Of a stretch of DNA of 64,000 nt, positions 7,414-61,023 are shown one piece after another (within the stretch, counting starts at the first letter, position 1; each line of letters starts with the position of its first letter). The notes under the pieces were generated by a model. It was not told the DNA's origin and did not search any database. It worked only from the letters and a program-made list of their open reading frames with translations. Origin of the DNA: Ruminococcaceae bacterium UBA1227 (GTDB lineage Bacteria; Bacillota; Clostridia; Oscillospirales; Acutalibacteraceae); assembly GCA_002309175.1 (NCBI GenBank), contig DBWX01000011.1, forward strand, positions 18,233 through 82,232. The letters run 5' to 3'. The translations under genes were made by a program, and so were the position numbers.

Positions 7414-7506
7414 GGAGAGTTGTCCGAGCTGGCCGAAGGAGCACGATTGGAAATCGTGTAGACGGTTAAAGCTGTCTCGAGGGTTCGAATCCCTTGCTCT
7501 CCGCCA
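7414..7506 (+). tRNA. tRNA-Ser(GGA), CCA encoded
   Basis: Cloverleaf folded by hand. Acceptor GGAGAGT/GCTCTCC, anticodon stem CACGA/TCGTG with loop TTGGAAA, long variable arm, T arm GAGGG-TTCGAAT-CCCTT, discriminator G + CCA. Confidence 0.93.
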
Positions 7507-9364: not shown

Positions 9365-10846
9365 TTGACGCGTCTTTTACGTTTTAAGGGGCTTGTTCTC
9401 GCACTTTTGATGACACTCTGTCTCACTGCCTGCAGCGGCGGAGGCGGAGAGCCCGAAACCACCACAAAGAAACCCGCAGGTCAGAAGGAGAAGCCCATGG
9501 AGGCTATCTCGCTGGTCTGTGATCAGATTGATGACGGCTCCGATACGCTCGACGCCTATACACAGCATATCTTCCTCGGCTCACGCGAACTCGAGTACGA
9601 GTACGCCGCCCTTTCGGATGCTCTTTCAAAGCTCAATGCCGCGAACGACGAGCAGTCGAACATGGAAATCGAGAAACTTCAGAAGGACTCTGAGGAGTAC
9701 AAGGCAAAATACGGCATAGAATTCTTCCCCGGCGAAGTCTACTCCCGCAGACAGTTCATACCGCGCCGCGCGGACACGACTGTCGTCAGCCTGCTTATGC
9801 TCTGCGAGTACTATGACGGCACATCTGACATGCGCTCGGAGTATTTGTCGCTCAACTACGACACGAAGACGGGAAAGCAGCTTTATCTCGGCGATGTATT
9901 CCCCACGTTTGAGAAAATCCTTCCGGCAATCTCAGAGTCACTCAAGAAATCCTACCCCAAGGCCGACTTCCTCGAGGAGAATCTGACCAAGGCGATAAGG
10001 GCGCTCTATGAGGCGGATGCCATAGAGTTCACCATTGACTATGAGGGTATAACATTCTACTTCAACTCCGGTGTCCTGGCTGACGAGTCCGACGGAGTGC
10101 TCACTGCATCGTTTAAGTACAACAGTTTCAGGGACAATATCAACAAGAAGTTTACCGAGGTTCCGAAGGTTTACAGCTACTGCTTCACCGACGTTGTGCC
10201 GAACTACAGGTCCGTTGCCGTCGATGTCGATTCGGACAATCTCCTCGGCGGCTACAAGTCGATGGAACTTGAGTTTGACGAGACCGAGACCAAACTGCCC
10301 GACTTCGCCTGTCAGGCATATCGAGCATACATTGTTCATATGGACAAGGGCGACGAATACATCTACGTTGACACGAAGACTGAGACAGGCTACGGCGACC
10401 TCTATGTCTACAGTCTCGGCGCCAAGAATCTGTATGAACTCAAGCATATAAAGAATTCCTCGATTTTCGCGACGGGCATCGGCGACAGCGCTCCGTGCTA
10501 CACGGATCTTTTTACGAATCCGAAGAAGTTCCGCCTCGGCACCCGCTGCGACATGCTTGCCACGAGTGTCGCGAAGAACGATTACAAGGTCGGCTCAGAC
10601 GGCCTCCCGGTTCTCCGCAACCCGGAAGCCTGGTACACCATCGACAGCATGCATCAGTACACGCTGCGCTCGGATATCCGTGACAACGAAGGTGTTCTCA
10701 TCAAATCCGGCTCATCATTTATTTTCGTATATACTGACCTTTCCGACACGGTCGTGTTTGTGACCGAGGAGGGTCTTGAACATACCTTCAACCTCTCGAA
10801 GATCAATGTCAACAGGACGGTTGACGGTATAGAATACACAGAATAG
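9365..10846 (+). CDS. Lipoprotein, function unknown (possible DUF3298/RsiV-like fold in N-terminal half)
   Basis: Lipobox LTAC|SGGGG after a basic/hydrophobic leader. TTG start 10 nt after AGGAGG. Confidence 0.65.
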   Translation: MTRLLRFKGLVLALLMTLCLTACSGGGGEPETTTKKPAGQKEKPMEAISLVCDQIDDGSDTLDAYTQHIFLGSRELEYEYAALSDALSKLNAANDEQSNMEIEKLQKDSEEYKAKYGIEFFPGEVYSRRQFIPRRADTTVVSLLMLCEYYDGTSDMRSEYLSLNYDTKTGKQLYLGDVFPTFEKILPAISESLKKSYPKADFLEENLTKAIRALYEADAIEFTIDYEGITFYFNSGVLADESDGVLTASFKYNSFRDNINKKFTEVPKVYSYCFTDVVPNYRSVAVDVDSDNLLGGYKSMELEFDETETKLPDFACQAYRAYIVHMDKGDEYIYVDTKTETGYGDLYVYSLGAKNLYELKHIKNSSIFATGIGDSAPCYTDLFTNPKKFRLGTRCDMLATSVAKNDYKVGSDGLPVLRNPEAWYTIDSMHQYTLRSDIRDNEGVLIKSGSSFIFVYTDLSDTVVFVTEEGLEHTFNLSKINVNRTVDGIEYTE

Positions 10847-10858
10847 GAGGGAAAGCCC

Positions 10859-11974
10859 GTGAAAAAATATAACTGCCCGAACTGTTCGGCTGAGCTTTAC
10901 TGGGATGCGAAAGCGAATGCGCTCAAGTGCGAATACTGCGACAAGTCGTACCAGCCCGCAGAGCTTGACGCCCTTTTAGCGAAGGCCGACGAAATAAAGG
11001 GCAAGAAGAAGGAAAAACCCGCGGAGGACCGCGCGGAAAAGGTGACGCGCGAGACGACCGATCAGGACAGGGCTTCGGATGATTCGACGAAGACCGGTTA
11101 TGATGACCTTGTCGTCTATCAGTGTGAAAACTGCGGGGCGGAAGTCATCACTTCCAAATCCACGGTCGCCACGACCTGTGCGTTCTGCGGCCGCGCAATC
11201 TCACTCTCCAACAAGATGGTCGGTGACTTTAAGCCCGATGAGGTCATTCCTTTTGCAGTCGATGAGAAAAAGGCAAAGGATATCTACAAAACCTATGCAA
11301 AGAAGGGCGGACTTACACCGAATGCCTTCACAAAGACCGGCGTTATCAAAAAGTGCAAGGGTATCTATGTGCCCTTCTGGCTCCACTCATATGACGAGAC
11401 CGCGGATGTCGTTCTGGCATGCGAGAATGTCACGAGCCACAAGAGCGGCGACGACAAAATCGTCGAGCATGAGATGTACACGGTCAACATGGAAGTGGGC
11501 TCAAGATTCTCCAGTATTCCCACTGACGGTCTTAAGAATCTGAGCGATGAGCTCATGGCTCAGATTGAACCTTTTGACTATTCGAAACTCGTCGCTTTTA
11601 ACCCCGCTTATATGGCAGGTTTCTATGCTGAAGAGTACGATGAAAACGCCGAGCAGAAGATAGGCGAGGCGCAGGCGCGCTCCAAGGAGGCAGTGTCCGC
11701 CCAGGCCATTGACCAGGCGGGACCGTACATGCAGAAGAGCGTGTCCTCCTACCATCCCACATACAGCAATGTCGTATCAAAATACGCAATGCTTCCCATC
11801 TGGATGTTCAATGTCGATTACAAGGGCAAGCTCTGGCAGTTTGCCGTAAACGGCGAGACGGGAAAGATAGCGGGCAAACTCCCGATAAGCAAGCTCAAGG
11901 TTGCTGCCGCGGCAGGCGGCGGATTCCTCGGAACGCAGCTGATAGCAATGGTTATCAGACTGCTGACGATGTAA
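10859..11974 (+). CDS. Double zinc-ribbon membrane protein, YdjG-like
   Basis: CPNC..x..CEYC and CENC..x..CAFC ribbons at the N-terminus. C-terminal TM (GGGFLGTQLIAMVIRLL). Sits upstream of TPM and SPFH genes, as in B. subtilis ydjGHI. Confidence 0.55.
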   Translation: MKKYNCPNCSAELYWDAKANALKCEYCDKSYQPAELDALLAKADEIKGKKKEKPAEDRAEKVTRETTDQDRASDDSTKTGYDDLVVYQCENCGAEVITSKSTVATTCAFCGRAISLSNKMVGDFKPDEVIPFAVDEKKAKDIYKTYAKKGGLTPNAFTKTGVIKKCKGIYVPFWLHSYDETADVVLACENVTSHKSGDDKIVEHEMYTVNMEVGSRFSSIPTDGLKNLSDELMAQIEPFDYSKLVAFNPAYMAGFYAEEYDENAEQKIGEAQARSKEAVSAQAIDQAGPYMQKSVSSYHPTYSNVVSKYAMLPIWMFNVDYKGKLWQFAVNGETGKIAGKLPISKLKVAAAAGGGFLGTQLIAMVIRLLTM

Positions 11975-12820: not shown

Positions 12821-13506
12821 TGGCTGTTTACGATATGCTCAAGGACAAACTTATCCGTGTGCTGCGCCGTGAGGTGGCCGACGTGGTCGTCGGCGCGACG
12901 GGCCTGACGCCGTCTGAGGCGGTCGAGGTGGCGAAGGTCGCCACCACGCTTGCAAAGGGCGCACAGACCCCATCACCGAAATCCATTTCAGGAGCCACCG
13001 ACATCTTCCTGAAGAAGATAATGGCCGACTTCCCGAATTTCAGCAACAGTGATGCCGAAAAGGCGCTCTCAGAGTGTATTCACGAATACATCGACATAAA
13101 GTATGAGGGCAAGACACAGTTTGAAATGCCGAATGTGGCAAGGGGTGTCGAGACCACGATTGACCGCTCGCGGGAAGACTGTAAAATCGGCAATATCGTC
13201 ATCCACAGATTCGCAATTGCCGACTATGAAAAATCCGAGGAATATGCTACAATTAGTTATCAGGCAGCCTGCGGTTTCGATGTCATAACGGGCATCCCGG
13301 AAAACGACAGGCACCTCGAGAAGAGGTACAAGCTTGATTACTCTTTAAGATTCGTGCAAGACGGCGAATCGGCCGTTTCGTATATCTGTCCGAACTGCAA
13401 CGCCACGCTCGGCGCAAAAGTCAGGGATGACTGCCCGTACTGCGGGGCGCATGTGGTCTGGGACACAATTTACTCTTGGTATATAGCTTCTATAACAGAA
13501 GATTGA
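12820..13506 (+). CDS. Hypothetical protein with C-terminal zinc ribbon (possibly Tim44-like/NTF2 fold)
   Basis: CPNCNATLGAKVRDDCPYCGAHV at the C-terminus. Its ATG overlaps the TAA of the upstream gene (TAATG). Confidence 0.5.
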   Translation: MAVYDMLKDKLIRVLRREVADVVVGATGLTPSEAVEVAKVATTLAKGAQTPSPKSISGATDIFLKKIMADFPNFSNSDAEKALSECIHEYIDIKYEGKTQFEMPNVARGVETTIDRSREDCKIGNIVIHRFAIADYEKSEEYATISYQAACGFDVITGIPENDRHLEKRYKLDYSLRFVQDGESAVSYICPNCNATLGAKVRDDCPYCGAHVVWDTIYSWYIASITED

Positions 13507-13522
13507 AAGGAGAACAAACACT

Positions 13523-14803
13523 ATGGGACTTAAAAAAGTTGCTGAGGCAGCTGCTGCTGCAACAGGTCTTACCGGTGCCATCCAGACCGTGGTTCAGTCT
13601 GCGGCATGGAAAGAGTATTTCCAGTCAGGCGATATGTCAGACGGCATACTCATGAAGCGCGGTGAGAAAATCATGGCCGACGGTACAAAGAATACCAAGG
13701 CTGATGCAAACCTCATCTCTGCAGGTTCGGGCATCGACATTCAGGAAGGACAGGCAATGATCCTTGTCGAGAACGGCAAGATTGTTGAGTTCTGCGCTGA
13801 GCCCGGACGCTACACATTTGACGAGTCCACGGCTCCGTCATTCATCCCGTCAGGTGACGGTTCATTCAAGGAAAACCTTGTAGAGAACATCAAGAAGCTC
13901 GGCAAGGAAGTTGCTGATCAGTGGATGGCCGGCGGCCAGCGCTTCAGCTCACAGAGAGTATTCTTCATCAATATGTGCGAACTCATCGCCGCTCCCGTAA
14001 AATGGGGCTGCGGAGACATCGGTTTCCATCACACCGGTGCCATGGGCGAGCAGCTCGACATCACAATCAAGGGCAACGGACAGCTCACACTCAAGGTTTC
14101 CGATCCGCTTCTCTTCTTCCAGAACATCGGCGCTCAGTATGTCGGTGTTGAGGGTGATGTAGTTGTCTCCATCAACGATGAAGGCATCCTTTCAAACCTC
14201 AAGTCAGGCATTCTTGACAAGATAGGTGAGGCTGTTTCCACACTCGGTACACAGCAGGCTGTTGCCTACACGGCAATCGGTTCTCACTCAAGCGAAATCA
14301 AGGATCTCATAAACGTAAACCTCTCATCTGAGTGGGCCGGCGAACGCGGCTTCGAAGTCTGCACATTCACCGTAAATGGTGCATTCATGCCGACAGACGA
14401 AGACAAGGCTACACTTAAGGAGATGCAGAGATCCTTCAACATGGGTGCAAACGTCAACGCGGCCAACTACGATGTCCAGAAGACAATGGCCGAAGGCGTC
14501 AAGGCAGCCGGCGAAAACGGAGGCGATGGCGGTTCTATGATGGGTATGGGTCTCGGTATCGGTGCCATAGGCAATACAGGCCTCGGCCAGATAGTCAACC
14601 AGAATCCTGCTCCGGCAGCGGCTCCCGCTGCGGCACCTGCAGCAGGCTGGACATGCGAATGCGGCACAGCCAACAGCGGCAACTTCTGCACAAACTGCGG
14701 TAAGGCAAAGCCCGAAGCTCCCGCAGGCGCTTTCTGCCCCGAGTGCGGCACAAAGCTCCCCGAAGGCGCTAAGTTCTGCACAAACTGCGGCAAACAGCTG
14801 TAA
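13523..14803 (+). CDS. SPFH/Band-7-like protein with C-terminal double zinc ribbon (YdjI / COG4260-like)
   Basis: 426 aa. PAAAPAAAPAA linker followed by CECG..CTNCG and CPECG..CTNCG ribbons. The body resembles the SPFH 'virion core protein-like' family as I remember it. Confidence 0.6.
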   Translation: MGLKKVAEAAAAATGLTGAIQTVVQSAAWKEYFQSGDMSDGILMKRGEKIMADGTKNTKADANLISAGSGIDIQEGQAMILVENGKIVEFCAEPGRYTFDESTAPSFIPSGDGSFKENLVENIKKLGKEVADQWMAGGQRFSSQRVFFINMCELIAAPVKWGCGDIGFHHTGAMGEQLDITIKGNGQLTLKVSDPLLFFQNIGAQYVGVEGDVVVSINDEGILSNLKSGILDKIGEAVSTLGTQQAVAYTAIGSHSSEIKDLINVNLSSEWAGERGFEVCTFTVNGAFMPTDEDKATLKEMQRSFNMGANVNAANYDVQKTMAEGVKAAGENGGDGGSMMGMGLGIGAIGNTGLGQIVNQNPAPAAAPAAAPAAGWTCECGTANSGNFCTNCGKAKPEAPAGAFCPECGTKLPEGAKFCTNCGKQL

Positions 14804-17097: not shown

Positions 17098-17104
17098 GTT
17101 TTGT

Positions 17105-17290
17105 TATCACCCGCCGAGCCGGGGTCCCGGAAATATTAACCTGCATATAGGCAGGTGGGTGCCCACTGTCCACTACCGTGCTCCCAACGTCCCGCAAAAG
17201 AAACGGGGAGGTCTGCACTCCATTTCCAAGTTAAGCTCCCTTTTAGTGTGTGTTGGGTTAGTATTCGGGAGAATCGAACCCGGCAGGCTT
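17105..17290 (-). ncRNA. Candidate structured sRNA, possibly 6S RNA (ssrS-like)
   Basis: About 185 nt with no ORF, between convergent genes. On the minus strand the 5' end CCUGCCGGG pairs with the 3' end CUCGGCGGG, and the helix extends through UCCCG/CGGGA and AAUA..UAACC/GGUUA..UAUU. G-U pairs favour the minus strand. An A/C-rich bubble lies in the middle. The bidirectional terminator at 17063-17097 closes it. Confidence 0.3.
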
Positions 17291-17296
17291 TTTCGC

Positions 17297-34347: not shown

Positions 34348-34537
34348 CTTTTCCGGCATACATATTTTGCTGTTTCCGTTAAAAACAGGCGAAAAAATAA
34401 GTAACCGCCCAGCTGTCACTGAGCGGTTACTTTAAGTAATTTCTCAAACAACAAACCGTCTGTACGGTCTGCCTTCGTCCATATTATACCAAAACTACAT
34501 CGCCCAGTCAATGTAATTGAATAAGGCGCTTAAGGCA

Positions 34538-34578
34538 TAAAAAATCAACCTCTTACAGCGTGTAAGAGGTTGATTTTT
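34538..34578 (-). terminator. Rho-independent terminator directly after tRNA-Leu CCA end
   Basis: ATCAACCTCTTACA-GCG-TGTAAGAGGTTGAT hairpin with an A-run at 34538-34543, which gives a U-tract on the minus strand. Confidence 0.65.
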
Positions 34579-34892
34579 TGGTGCCGGTAACCGGGGTCGA
34601 ACCGGTACGGTGTTGCCACCGAGGGATTTTCGTACCACTCTATGTCGCCATAGCCACTTTCGTGTTGTGGTCTGGAGCTCGTCTTCACCATATCTCTCGA
34701 CTTAGGTGGTCGGTGTAAGCTCTCTACACTCGGTCATATGACCTAGCACGGCGTTCTCTGAGCGCCTTCGCCGTTTTAGCCGACTTCTGCACTGACAGTT
34801 TCCCATCAGGCACTCTCTGAGAATAATCTCAGTCTGCAAATTGCAGAGCTCAGATTAAAGTCCCTTGCGTCTGCCAATTCCGCCATACCGGC
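34579..34892 (-). tRNA. tRNA-Leu(UAA) gene interrupted in the anticodon loop by a group I intron (exons 34892-34858 and 34630-34579)
   Basis: Joined exons give an 87-nt class II tRNA. Acceptor GCCGGTA/TACCGGC, D arm GCG-GAATTGGCAGA-CGC, anticodon stem AGGGA/TCCCT with loop CTTAAAA, variable arm GGTG-GCAA-CACC, T arm ACCGG-TTCGACC-CCGGT, discriminator A + CCA. Confidence 0.85.
34631..34857 (-). ncRNA. Group I self-splicing intron (IC3-like), 227 nt, no ORF
   Basis: Inserted between U34 and A35. The 5' exon ends in U, which can form a U-G wobble in P1 (exon ACUU with intron GAGU at 34815-34812, extended by UCUGAG/CUCAGA). The last intron nt is G. There are several GC hairpins, including a GGGAAAC loop. 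The stretches GUGUAGAGA, CCACCUAAG and UAUGG resemble tRNA IC3 introns as I recall them. Confidence 0.72.
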
Positions 34893-34908
34893 ATCTGTGC
34901 GCTTGCAT

Positions 34909-34937
34909 ATTTTAACATAGCGGGGGCAGGTTTTCAA
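34909..34937 (-). promoter_or_regulatory. sigma-A-like promoter of tRNA-Leu
   Basis: On the minus strand: TTGAAA (34932-34937), 17-nt spacer, TAAAAT (34909-34914), 16 nt upstream of the tRNA 5' end. Confidence 0.5.
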
Positions 34938-35062
34938 GGTTTGCCACAGCATTATCTTAATATAAATTTAACTTTCGGTTATATTGAAATAATACCTATA
35001 ATTGTGATATGATAAATTGAATTATTGTTTATTTTGGGAAAATATGTTTAGAGGTATTGTAA

Positions 35063-60120: not shown

Positions 60121-61023
60121 GTGAGTATGGTAAAAAACACCCAAAACGGAACAATCATAAAAGGCATAGGCGGTTTCTATTATGTGGAAACCGCCGAAGG
60201 CATTTTTGAGTGTAAGGCCAGAGGTGTCTTCAGAAAAGAAAAAATCACCCCCATGGTGGGTGACAATGTCGTAATAACAGTAAATGATAATACGGACAAC
60301 ACAATTGATGAGATAAAAGAGCGCAGAAGTTTTCTCCTGAGGCCTCCTGTCGCCAATATCGACCAATTGATAATAGTTGTCTCCTGTACACAGCCGAGAC
60401 CGAATACGCTGCTTGTGGACCGTCTGACGGCCATTGCAGTGAAAAATAATATCGAGCCCGTAATCGTCCTGAATAAAATTGACCTCGCTGACGTAGAAGA
60501 TCTGAAAGATATTTACAAAAAAACCGTCTTTAATGTCATAGAGGCCTGCGGAAAGACAGGCGAGGGCACGGAAGAGATTAAGGAAATACTCAAAAACAAG
60601 ATCTCCGCTTTCACGGGCAACTCGGGTGTGGGCAAGTCTACATTGCTCAATCAGATAGACCCGCATCTCAATCTTGAGACGAATGAGATTTCACAGAAGC
60701 TCGGCCGCGGCAAGCACACAACCAGGGAGTGCACGCTCATAAAACTGGATGACAGCACATATGTCGCAGACACGCCCGGTTTCGCCTCGCTCGAACTTTT
60801 AAAGCAGGAAGTAATCCTTAAAGAGGACCTCCAGTACTGCTTCCCCGAGTTTGAGGACTTTATCGACAGCTGCAAATTCGCAACCAACTGTTCCCACACG
60901 ACGGACAAGGGCTGCGCAGTAATAAAAGCAGTGGAAGACGGCATTATTTCAAAATCCCGACACGACTCATACAAGGCTTTGTACAACGAAGTCAAGGACT
61001 TAAAGGAGTGGCAGGTAAAATGA
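60121..61023 (+). CDS. rsgA: Ribosome small-subunit-dependent GTPase A
   Basis: Circularly permuted GTPase: NKIDL, then GNSGVGKSTL. C-terminal zinc motif C..C.H...C. The start may be GTG 60121 or ATG 60127. Confidence 0.9.
   Translation: MSMVKNTQNGTIIKGIGGFYYVETAEGIFECKARGVFRKEKITPMVGDNVVITVNDNTDNTIDEIKERRSFLLRPPVANIDQLIIVVSCTQPRPNTLLVDRLTAIAVKNNIEPVIVLNKIDLADVEDLKDIYKKTVFNVIEACGKTGEGTEEIKEILKNKISAFTGNSGVGKSTLLNQIDPHLNLETNEISQKLGRGKHTTRECTLIKLDDSTYVADTPGFASLELLKQEVILKEDLQYCFPEFEDFIDSCKFATNCSHTTDKGCAVIKAVEDGIISKSRHDSYKALYNEVKDLKEWQVK

Follow-up and report, generated by a model that had tools for sequence, protein, structure and literature searches.

We report that the tRNA-Leu(UAA) gene in a 64-kb stretch of DNA from a gut bacterium of the class Clostridia, a relative of Candidatus Limimonas (Acutalibacteraceae; contig DBWX01000011.1), is split by a 227-nucleotide (nt) insert lacking an open reading frame (ORF), and that this insert is almost certainly a group I intron. 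The window below means this whole 64-kb stretch; gene coordinates count along it, and the gene is on its minus strand. In all likelihood the intron is an ORF-less IC3-type intron at the classical Leu.3Ug site of a chromosomal Clostridia gene. It belongs to a distinct subclass, here named type A, in which the P5 hairpin is absent (P, L and J denote paired, loop and joining segments) and nucleotides close to the 5' splice site pair with the loop of P4. This pseudoknot very probably forms, and on the sequence data it probably also takes over the function of P5, although with less certainty. The kind of element is known, while the fold variant is apparently new. As a whole, and with less than even confidence, we read type A as an undescribed subclass where the P5 helix arises in trans, from a pseudoknot that joins the P4 loop to the segment just past the 5' splice site, thereby tying P1 to the P4-P6 domain; which escapes the standard Rfam model; and which has spread among gut Firmicutes by endonuclease-bearing tRNA-Leu(UAA) copies in large, possibly stop-codon-recoded phages.

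The split tRNA gene and the group I core

The 5' exon (35 nt; 34858-34892), identified by reading the sequence and with ARAGORN, has U34 as its last base, and the 3' exon (52 nt; 34579-34630; ARAGORN) includes an encoded CCA. The intron between them (34631-34857) was assigned on the basis of ARAGORN, covariation and a seed profile. When spliced in silico, the exons form an 87-mer that ARAGORN recognises as tRNA-Leu(taa) with a long variable arm and CCA, and the exon and intron coordinates given in an earlier reading of this DNA from its letters (the sequence-only reading) are exact. The same reading had the 5' exon ending with U (34858) and the intron with G (34631), as we also find; the terminal G (omega G), ahead of the 3' splice site, is invariant in 27/27 relatives. 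The insertion between U34 and A35 (CUU/…G/AAAA) fits the Leu.3Ug definition of Williams (Williams 2020, bioRxiv 10.1101/2020.01.27.920355) and, as had been noted, matches the insertion point of the cyanobacterial/plastid tRNA-Leu(UAA) intron. Joining the exons gives a 7-nt anticodon loop, CUUAAAA, with the predicted junction …GGGACUU/AAAAUCCC…. The longest stop-free stretch in the intron is 50 codons, that is, it has no ORF and encodes no endonuclease.

Searches with an IC3-specific profile and with a core pattern place the insert among the bacterial tRNA introns. Specifically, an nhmmer profile was built, using sequence only, from 13 IC3-type seeds in the supplement of Williams 2020 that were picked independently of the window; the seeds were transcribed by hand and two are possibly off by 1 nt at the 3' end. 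This profile gave one significant match in the 64 kb, 34815-34661 on the minus strand (E = 5.2e-7, 23.7 bits), with an alignment spanning the guide sequence through P9 and a gap at the expected P5 site. A second candidate intron at 60839-60863 (minus strand; UCAAACUCGGGGAAGC, J3/4-P4-like, nhmmer E = 0.01) was judged to be a chance match because no other core motif is present within 300 nt. The core pattern GUGYAGAGA-N9-14-CCUAAG-N6-12-UAUGGNGAAG, covering J6/7, P7, P8 and J8/7, matched at least 120 species genomes, and among the matches listed 111 of 120 genomes have the motif within a tRNA gene split by an intron (Leu-UAA, Leu-CAA, Met/Ile-CAU, Arg-CCU, Ser, Thr and others). Since the same motif marks split tRNAs to this extent, its occurrence at the site in the window is more than chance. 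The motifs GUGUAGAGA, CCACCUAAG and UAUGG, which the sequence-only reading linked to IC3 introns, are indeed present and spaced as in the Azoarcus seed Aol6.Ile2.5Ug (Williams 2020 supplement). A BLASTn search against phage GenBank records returned tRNA exon matches and no intron homologue. The minimum free energy fold of the single sequence (z = -3.8) did not recover the group I core and is uninformative on its own.

The result that at face value speaks against a group I intron is that the Rfam model RF00028 gave no match, neither at the gathering score in the whole window nor at E≤10 in the region 34450-35000; the search that had been suggested for 34579-34892 was thus negative even at E≤10. 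No other family in Rfam 15 matches the insert, and the run at E≤10 gave chance matches to the terminator hairpin alone. In a control, however, RF00028 reached its cut-off (50 bits) in 3 of 16 loci with related split tRNAs, at 50.2-56.9 bits, and the 13 misses include two classical types, Rhizobium tRNA-Arg(CCU) and Comamonas tRNA(CAU). None of the RF00028 seeds is bacterial, and Williams lowered the score to 18-20 bits before building a new model (Williams 2020, bioRxiv 10.1101/2020.01.27.920355). Because the control shows that the model is insensitive to this class, we do not hold the miss against the group I assignment; a match to RF00028 is a matter of detection and does not define the class.

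The tRNA finders have a similar difficulty. The default ARAGORN scan of the window overlooks the tRNA-Leu gene, its sole call being tRNA-Ser(GGA) at 7414-7506. Run on the unspliced DNA with introns permitted, ARAGORN places a 227-nt intron at anticodon position 34/35 and reports a Phe(gaa) gene, since the junction reads U/U and the program shifts it by one base. This is an annotation blind spot: the split tRNA-Leu(UAA) gene is missed entirely by RF00028 and by default tRNA finders, and genomes of this lineage would therefore seem to lack tRNA-Leu(UAA).

A probable pseudoknot at the position of P5 and the type A fold

Most tRNA-Leu(UAA) introns among the matches listed have the canonical layout …CAAAUUCGGGG-AA-P5-AAU-CCCGAG-CCAAG-P6…, which is found in Proteobacteria and in other Clostridia (L008, L018 and L048). 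Type A differs in that L1 is approximately 40 nt long and has two hairpins, compared with 7-10 nt in canonical introns, and in that P4 (ACGGCG/CGCCGU, 34748-34774; 3/6 pairs covary, 100% paired) directly closes a 15-nt loop, AAGGC-GCUCAGA-GAA. The GCUCAGA in this loop (34757-34763), situated where the 3' strand of P5 would sit, is complementary to UCUGAGC at intron nt 4-10 (34848-34854), and the pairing of the two strands is supported by covariation and by RNAalifold.

A metagenome scan using the type A signature, in which the hexamer of the loop was left as free N, yielded 27 distinct split tRNA-Leu(UAA) genes. All 27 have the exact reverse complement of their own loop hexamer at intron nt 4-9, as have 15/15 copies on viral contigs (42/42 in total). 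At the seventh pair, 25 of the metagenomic copies have G-C and two have G.U. The hexamer comes in seven variants among these copies, and a viral copy contributes one more. In an alignment of 27 distinct sequences (A2), in which well-aligned helices were scored, the pseudoknot helix is paired in 189/189 cells, and 4/7 pairs show compensatory changes with up to three pair types per position. The P5 hairpin, on the other hand, is absent from all 42 copies.

We consider the pseudoknot a stand-in for P5 because its loop strand precedes GAA and the 3' strand of P4, that is, it has the position of the P5 3' strand before J5/4. We infer that it would stack on P4 in P5's stead and so tether P1 to the P4-P6 domain. 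The type A layout is present in none of the 26 seeds of Williams and in no Rfam family, and a shallow literature search found no description of a pairing between L1 and the P4 loop or of a pseudoknot replacing P5. Type A is thus apparently an undescribed structural subclass, although existing bacterial models may already detect its members with the fold undescribed. It would be an example from nature of how the core of a much-studied ribozyme can be rewired, one core helix having given way to a pseudoknot that involves the substrate helix's loop. At approximately 225 nt it offers a compact test case for alternative P1 docking and P4-P6 assembly.

The covariation support for the rewired core is unusually clean. 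A P1-P9 structure drawn by hand was applied to the window intron and five genome relatives (71-95% identity); 98.6% of the cells are paired and 29/70 pairs show compensatory changes, and sliding the partners by 1-3 columns lowers the paired fraction to 30-39%. For alignment A2 the corresponding values are 98.3% paired, with 23 covarying pairs (P2 seven, P3 two, P4 three, P7 three, P8 three and P9 one in addition to the four of the pseudoknot), and 27-44% in the slid-partner control. Without a supplied structure, RNAalifold recovers P2, P6, P7, P8, P9a, P9b, the L1 hairpins, the tRNA arms and the pseudoknot. The sequence-only reading of an ORF-less group I intron in a Clostridia chromosome is accordingly upheld by profile and covariation, including a consistent and covarying P3-P7 core.

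The individual elements are as follows, from the 5' splice site onwards. The 5' strand of P1 consists of exon ACUU and intron U+1 (34857-34861), with U34 (34858) in a U.G wobble, and its 3' strand is the internal guide sequence AGAGU (34812-34816; sequence and A2); the 5' strand is invariant in 27/27 relatives. The proposed pairing of GAGU (34815-34812) with exon ACUU can form, the wobble at the splice site being U34.G78. Between the P1 strands, the expanded L1 holds hairpin H1 (UCUGCA-AUU-UGCAGA, 34833-34847; six-sequence fold and RNAalifold) and hairpin H2 (CUGAGA-UUAU-UCUCAG, 34817-34832), the latter with internal covariation (CUGGG/CCCAG, CUGGA/UCCAG). One part of the sequence-only reading did not stand, namely a helix UCUGAG/CUCAGA (34853-34848 with 34821-34816) stacked on P1. 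Its strands are non-complementary in L017, L081, L101, L065 and most metagenomic copies, and it was rejected because CUCAGA is the 3' strand of H2 while UCUGAG(C) covaries with the P4 loop.

P2 (34789-34811; 7/9 pairs covary) is capped by a GAAA tetraloop (34802-34799), which is the GGGAAAC loop seen previously. P3 pairs GUCGG (34780-34784) with CCGAC (34709-34713; alignment A2), with 2/5 pairs covarying and 100% paired. For P4, an alternative register pairing the second GGCG with CGCC was discarded since L065 covaries only in the ACGGCG/CGCCGU register; a pairing of GGC (34766-34764) with GCC beside the guide sequence is not claimed, both sides being invariant. Then follow the P6 hairpin GGUC-AUAU-GACC (34732-34743; 4/4 pairs covary on six sequences) and J6/7 GAGUGUAGA with the P7 5' strand GAGCU (34722-34718; together 34718-34731), whose partner is 34675-34679 (3/5 pairs covary). 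The P8 hairpin (34686-34708; sequence and A2) carries CCUAAG...UAUGG, the 11-nt GAAA-receptor motif, and is followed by J8/7 AAGACG and the P7 3' strand AGCUC (34675-34685; A2 and seed profile). GUAGAGA-P7 and GAAGAC…UCCAG are in register with the Azoarcus seed, and P7 is predicted to bind guanosine. The L2 tetraloop and the P8 receptor (34708-34686) are both conserved in type A, and L2 presumably docks on P8. Finally, P9 (ACCAC/GUGGU; 34634-34671) includes P9a (CAC-GAAA-GUG) and P9b (CUAUG-GCGA-CAUAG). P9b is invariant, and the P9a loop, GAAA in the window, is UUCAA, AACA or UUUUAUUAA among close relatives and hence not a conserved tetraloop.

Relation to other introns, the host locus and endonuclease-bearing copies

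A total of 5,292 split tRNA genes with such introns have been mapped in approximately 80,000 genomes, and Leu.3Ug is one of the four classical IC3 tRNA introns (Williams 2020, bioRxiv 10.1101/2020.01.27.920355). With thousands catalogued, a tRNA-Leu intron outside cyanobacteria and Proteobacteria is no longer surprising. The rarity assumed in the sequence-only reading does not hold, and the Clostridia copy is not exceptional, because the core motif is found in at least nine Clostridia species genomes, to which the 27 metagenomic copies are added. We compared the 102-nt 3' domain (intron sequence only) with that of the window: the identity is 77-94% for type A introns, 68-72% for other Clostridia tRNA introns, about 60% for proteobacterial Leu introns, 54% for the Azoarcus Ile intron and 40% for the one cyanobacterial intron compared, the seed Sel1 (Leu). 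Among the introns compared, the closest relative outside type A (72%) is on an 8-kb Lachnospiraceae contig (L095), in an array of approximately 16 tRNAs where ARAGORN labels the intron-split tRNA SeC(tca).

The classical cyanobacterial intron (Anabaena/Nostoc; Synechococcus Sel1.Leu.3Ug) shares with the window intron the insertion point, U-1, the terminal G, an IC3-type core and the lack of an ORF. Sel1.Leu.3Ug differs in that its L1 is short and its P5 hairpin normal, as against the 40-nt L1 with two hairpins and the pseudoknot of the window copy, which resides in a Clostridia chromosome. The Azoarcus pre-tRNA-Ile(CAU) intron (Aol6.Ile2.5Ug) has the order GUGUAGAGA-11 nt-CCACCUAAG-8 nt-UAUGGUGAAG with identical spacing, P7 GUAGAGACUA in the same register as J6/7-P7 of the window, the L2 GAAA tetraloop, the P8 11-nt receptor and a similar size (approximately 200-230 nt), although it interrupts another tRNA at another position of the anticodon loop. 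Its P5 bears a second CCUAAG…UAUGG receptor-type motif, on which the L9 GAAA tetraloop docks; type A has a variable P9a loop and no P5 receptor, and this L9-P5 docking is therefore unmatched. Closer in kind are the Leu.3Ug/Leu.3Cg introns of Proteobacteria and the canonical Clostridia introns (L008, L018 and L048; 'type B'), which share the tRNA, the site and P2/P8/P9b and are 60-70% identical over the 3' domain. Type B keeps a short L1 and the P5 segment, whereas type A substitutes the whole segment. Long-range pairings between loops are known in other group I introns, e.g. P13 and P14 in the Tetrahymena IC1 intron and P11 in subgroup IA. These are likewise Watson-Crick pairings of distant loops that stabilise the ribozyme; however, they supplement a complete core, while the type A pairing uses the P1 loop and takes the place of P5.

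At least 13 loci (L014, L023, L025, L037 and others) have a split tRNA-Leu(CAA) with a 5' exon ending in C, which fits the Leu.3Cg type (C-1 for U-1), and this type has been flagged as needing a splicing test (Williams 2020, bioRxiv 10.1101/2020.01.27.920355).

The split gene is flanked by genes for a MarR-type regulator, a HisJ-family phosphatase, a lipoprotein-like ORF, an RraB-family protein, a peptidylprolyl isomerase (PPIase), IspF, CdaA and a CdaR-like gene. This block is syntenic with seven intron-bearing loci (67-77% amino-acid identity), two of which are from Candidatus Limimonas genomes; locus L144 is essentially of the same species, with a 95% identical lipoprotein and an intron that differs at a few positions. 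Six more distant relatives (L182-L187), whose RraB-like proteins are 47-67% identical, keep the block. In them the HisJ gene is directly followed by a tRNA-Leu(UAA) that no intron interrupts, which in three cases also lies immediately upstream of the gene for the RraB-like protein; that of L184 matches the joined exons of L017, L081 and L101 exactly. Because the intron-less relatives share both block and tRNA, one conserved locus is seen in two states, with and without the intron. Relative to its flanks, the tRNA gene of seven intron-bearing loci has the reverse orientation of that in the six intron-less relatives. L034, although intron-bearing, is oriented like the intron-less relatives; the intron-bearing relatives that share the orientation of the window number six. 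The switch in orientation suggests an inversion or a replacement of a small tRNA cassette. In Candidatus Limimonas egerieequi (L101), two skipping-rope RNAs (RF02924; 75.6 and 72.9 bits; L101:2855-2933 and L101:3363-3441, plus strand) lie in the interval that separates the HisJ gene from the split tRNA-Leu, a position occupied in the window by the lipoprotein-like gene.

Type A introns are also present on 15 IMG/VR contigs of 9.7-196 kb, in dense tRNA arrays including tRNA(CUA). In 8/15 of these the P6 region carries an insert of approximately 500 nt, which in L192 encodes an intact 171-amino-acid HNH endonuclease (10728-11243; phrog_10822, E = 1.5e-52; Pfam HNH above cut-off), while L196 has a 201-amino-acid LAGLIDADG endonuclease (13304-13909; PF03161, E = 1.7e-30) placed after the P7 5' strand. 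The neighbouring genes match phage protein families (a few PHROG matches). These copies resemble phage group I introns with homing endonucleases in having HNH/LAGLIDADG ORFs in peripheral parts, although they interrupt a tRNA gene inside a tRNA array and not a protein-coding gene; the window copy, in comparison, is ORF-less and chromosomal.

The question whether the intron at the Leu.3Ug site is ancient or mobile, raised by the sequence-only reading, can thus be addressed with both alleles at one locus and with ORF-less chromosomal as well as endonuclease-bearing phage-like copies. Among type A introns, similarity does not follow that of the tRNAs: identity of the intron core and of the tRNA exons is weakly correlated (r = 0.41), and some pairs have introns that are 80-89% identical in tRNAs that are 54-60% identical. 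Inside the clade of the window, intron and exon identity track each other. This favours horizontal movement followed by vertical inheritance. In such a scenario the endonuclease-bearing (HNH/LAGLIDADG) copies would move horizontally, residing in the tRNA-Leu(UAA) genes that large phage-like contigs carry, the ancestor of the window lineage would have gained an intron that its sister lineages lack, and the ORF would then have been lost and the ORF-less copy vertically inherited since.

Four intronic HNH ORFs (L190, L193, L197 and L198) have in-frame TAG (CAG in L197 and L198) relative to Gln in L192, and tRNAs with the anticodon CUA, labelled 'Pyl' by ARAGORN, are present in the arrays of L188, L191, L193, L198 and L201. 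This is consistent with a recoding of TAG to Gln, which would delay expression of the endonuclease; literature searches for intron-split tRNAs in recoded phages gave nothing relevant. On the same 183-kb contig as L201, a type A intron is situated in a UAA-anticodon tRNA with a 5-nt variable loop (L160:1-343, minus strand), i.e. of class I shape unlike bacterial tRNA-Leu. Moreover, the general IC3 core motif is present on 77 IMG/VR contigs (L203-L279).

Predicted splicing and rival explanations

The gene appears to have its own promoter and terminator, as had been proposed. A promoter-like TTGAAA-17-TAAAAT with TG (extended -10) is located 17 nt 5' of the tRNA start (34909-34937; a consensus match), and a terminator-like hairpin with an 18-bp stem, a CGC loop and a U-run is located at 34539-34578; the hairpin was omitted by the terminator scan and seen by reading the sequence. 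The intron most likely splices, autonomously or not, and presumably by the standard group I pathway. A pre-tRNA transcribed from this promoter would form P1 by pairing the exon end (A)CUU and U+1 with the guide AGAG(U), so that the U.G wobble marks the splice site. Once bound in P7, free guanosine would attack after U34, the terminal G (34631) would then occupy the same site in P7, and ligation of the exons would restore the 7-nt anticodon loop CUUAAAA.

Several points weigh against this picture and the role given to the pseudoknot. The intron lacks a P5 hairpin, and the loss of P5 together with the L9-P5 contact could in principle lower autonomous activity. The part of the pseudoknot as a P5 substitute is deduced from where the strands lie in the sequence and not from a structure, and splicing activity is predicted from conservation. 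Since P1 is identical in 27/27 relatives, its pairing is consistent with the fold but shows no covariation. The relatives were gathered using patterns built from the window sequence, and motif conservation is therefore partly selected, although the patterns put no constraint on the hexamer of the pseudoknot or on most helix positions. As to mobility, the viral status of the endonuclease-bearing contigs, here called phage-like, comes mainly from the IMG/VR call, the tRNA arrays and a few PHROG matches, and no structural genes were found in the contig stretches examined.

The absence of P5, an L9a loop not conserved as a tetraloop and an RF00028 score below reporting level would all be expected if the intron is real but not self-splicing and depends on a protein of host or phage origin (a chaperone or a maturase-like protein), as is the case for some group I introns, e.g. 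Neurospora mitochondrial introns with CYT-18. We regard this as unlikely given that the pseudoknot puts a helix exactly at the P5 position, that the L2-P8 tetraloop-receptor pair is intact and that chromosomal copies of the intron have no candidate cofactor gene linked to them; Azoarcus-type introns of similar size self-splice. It is also improbable that the pairing between nt 4-10 and the P4 loop represents a regulatory or alternative conformer, either an inactive state away from P1 or a folding intermediate. Such a role would suit a 5' strand that begins just 3 nt past the splice site and a hexamer for which in the window and L034, unlike in other relatives, the 3' strand of H2 is a second possible partner. 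However, that partner is lacking in most relatives, the pairing is kept in 42/42 copies of which none has the P5 hairpin, and replacement of P5 explains the missing core helix more simply.

Given that the genome was seen over 64 kb, a second tRNA-Leu(UAA) copy elsewhere is possible, and expression and splicing of the gene are predicted; the intron could then be an inactive relic in a decaying pseudogene while another intact tRNA-Leu(UAA) does the work. This is highly unlikely, since the exons, U-1, the terminal G and all core helices are kept while the flanking proteins are 67-77% identical, the changes across species are compensatory and not disruptive, the promoter-like and terminator-like signals are intact, and the same locus carries a tRNA-Leu(UAA) gene in the intron-less relatives. 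That the insert is no group I intron at all, and instead arose by chance insertion or as an assembly artefact or is an element of another class, with coincidental motifs, would agree with the missing RF00028 match. It is effectively refuted by the independent seed profile (E = 5e-7) and by the covariation of the pseudoknotted P3/P7 core, with more than 40 independent assemblies sharing the architecture, and we give it next to no probability.

Two further RNA observations were made in the window. The only Rfam family reaching its gathering score in the 64 kb is 6S RNA (RF00013) at 17104-17292 (minus strand; 57.8 bits, cut-off 46.4). Just past the tRNA-Leu terminator, a near-consensus promoter-like TTGACT-17-TATAAT with TG (34511-34483, minus strand) is followed after approximately 50 nt by a 15-bp terminator-like hairpin with a T-run (34432-34399, minus strand). 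The region 34392-34511 on this strand has no ORF, no same-strand gene downstream and no Rfam match, is approximately 95% conserved in L144, and could be a candidate small RNA of approximately 85 nt.

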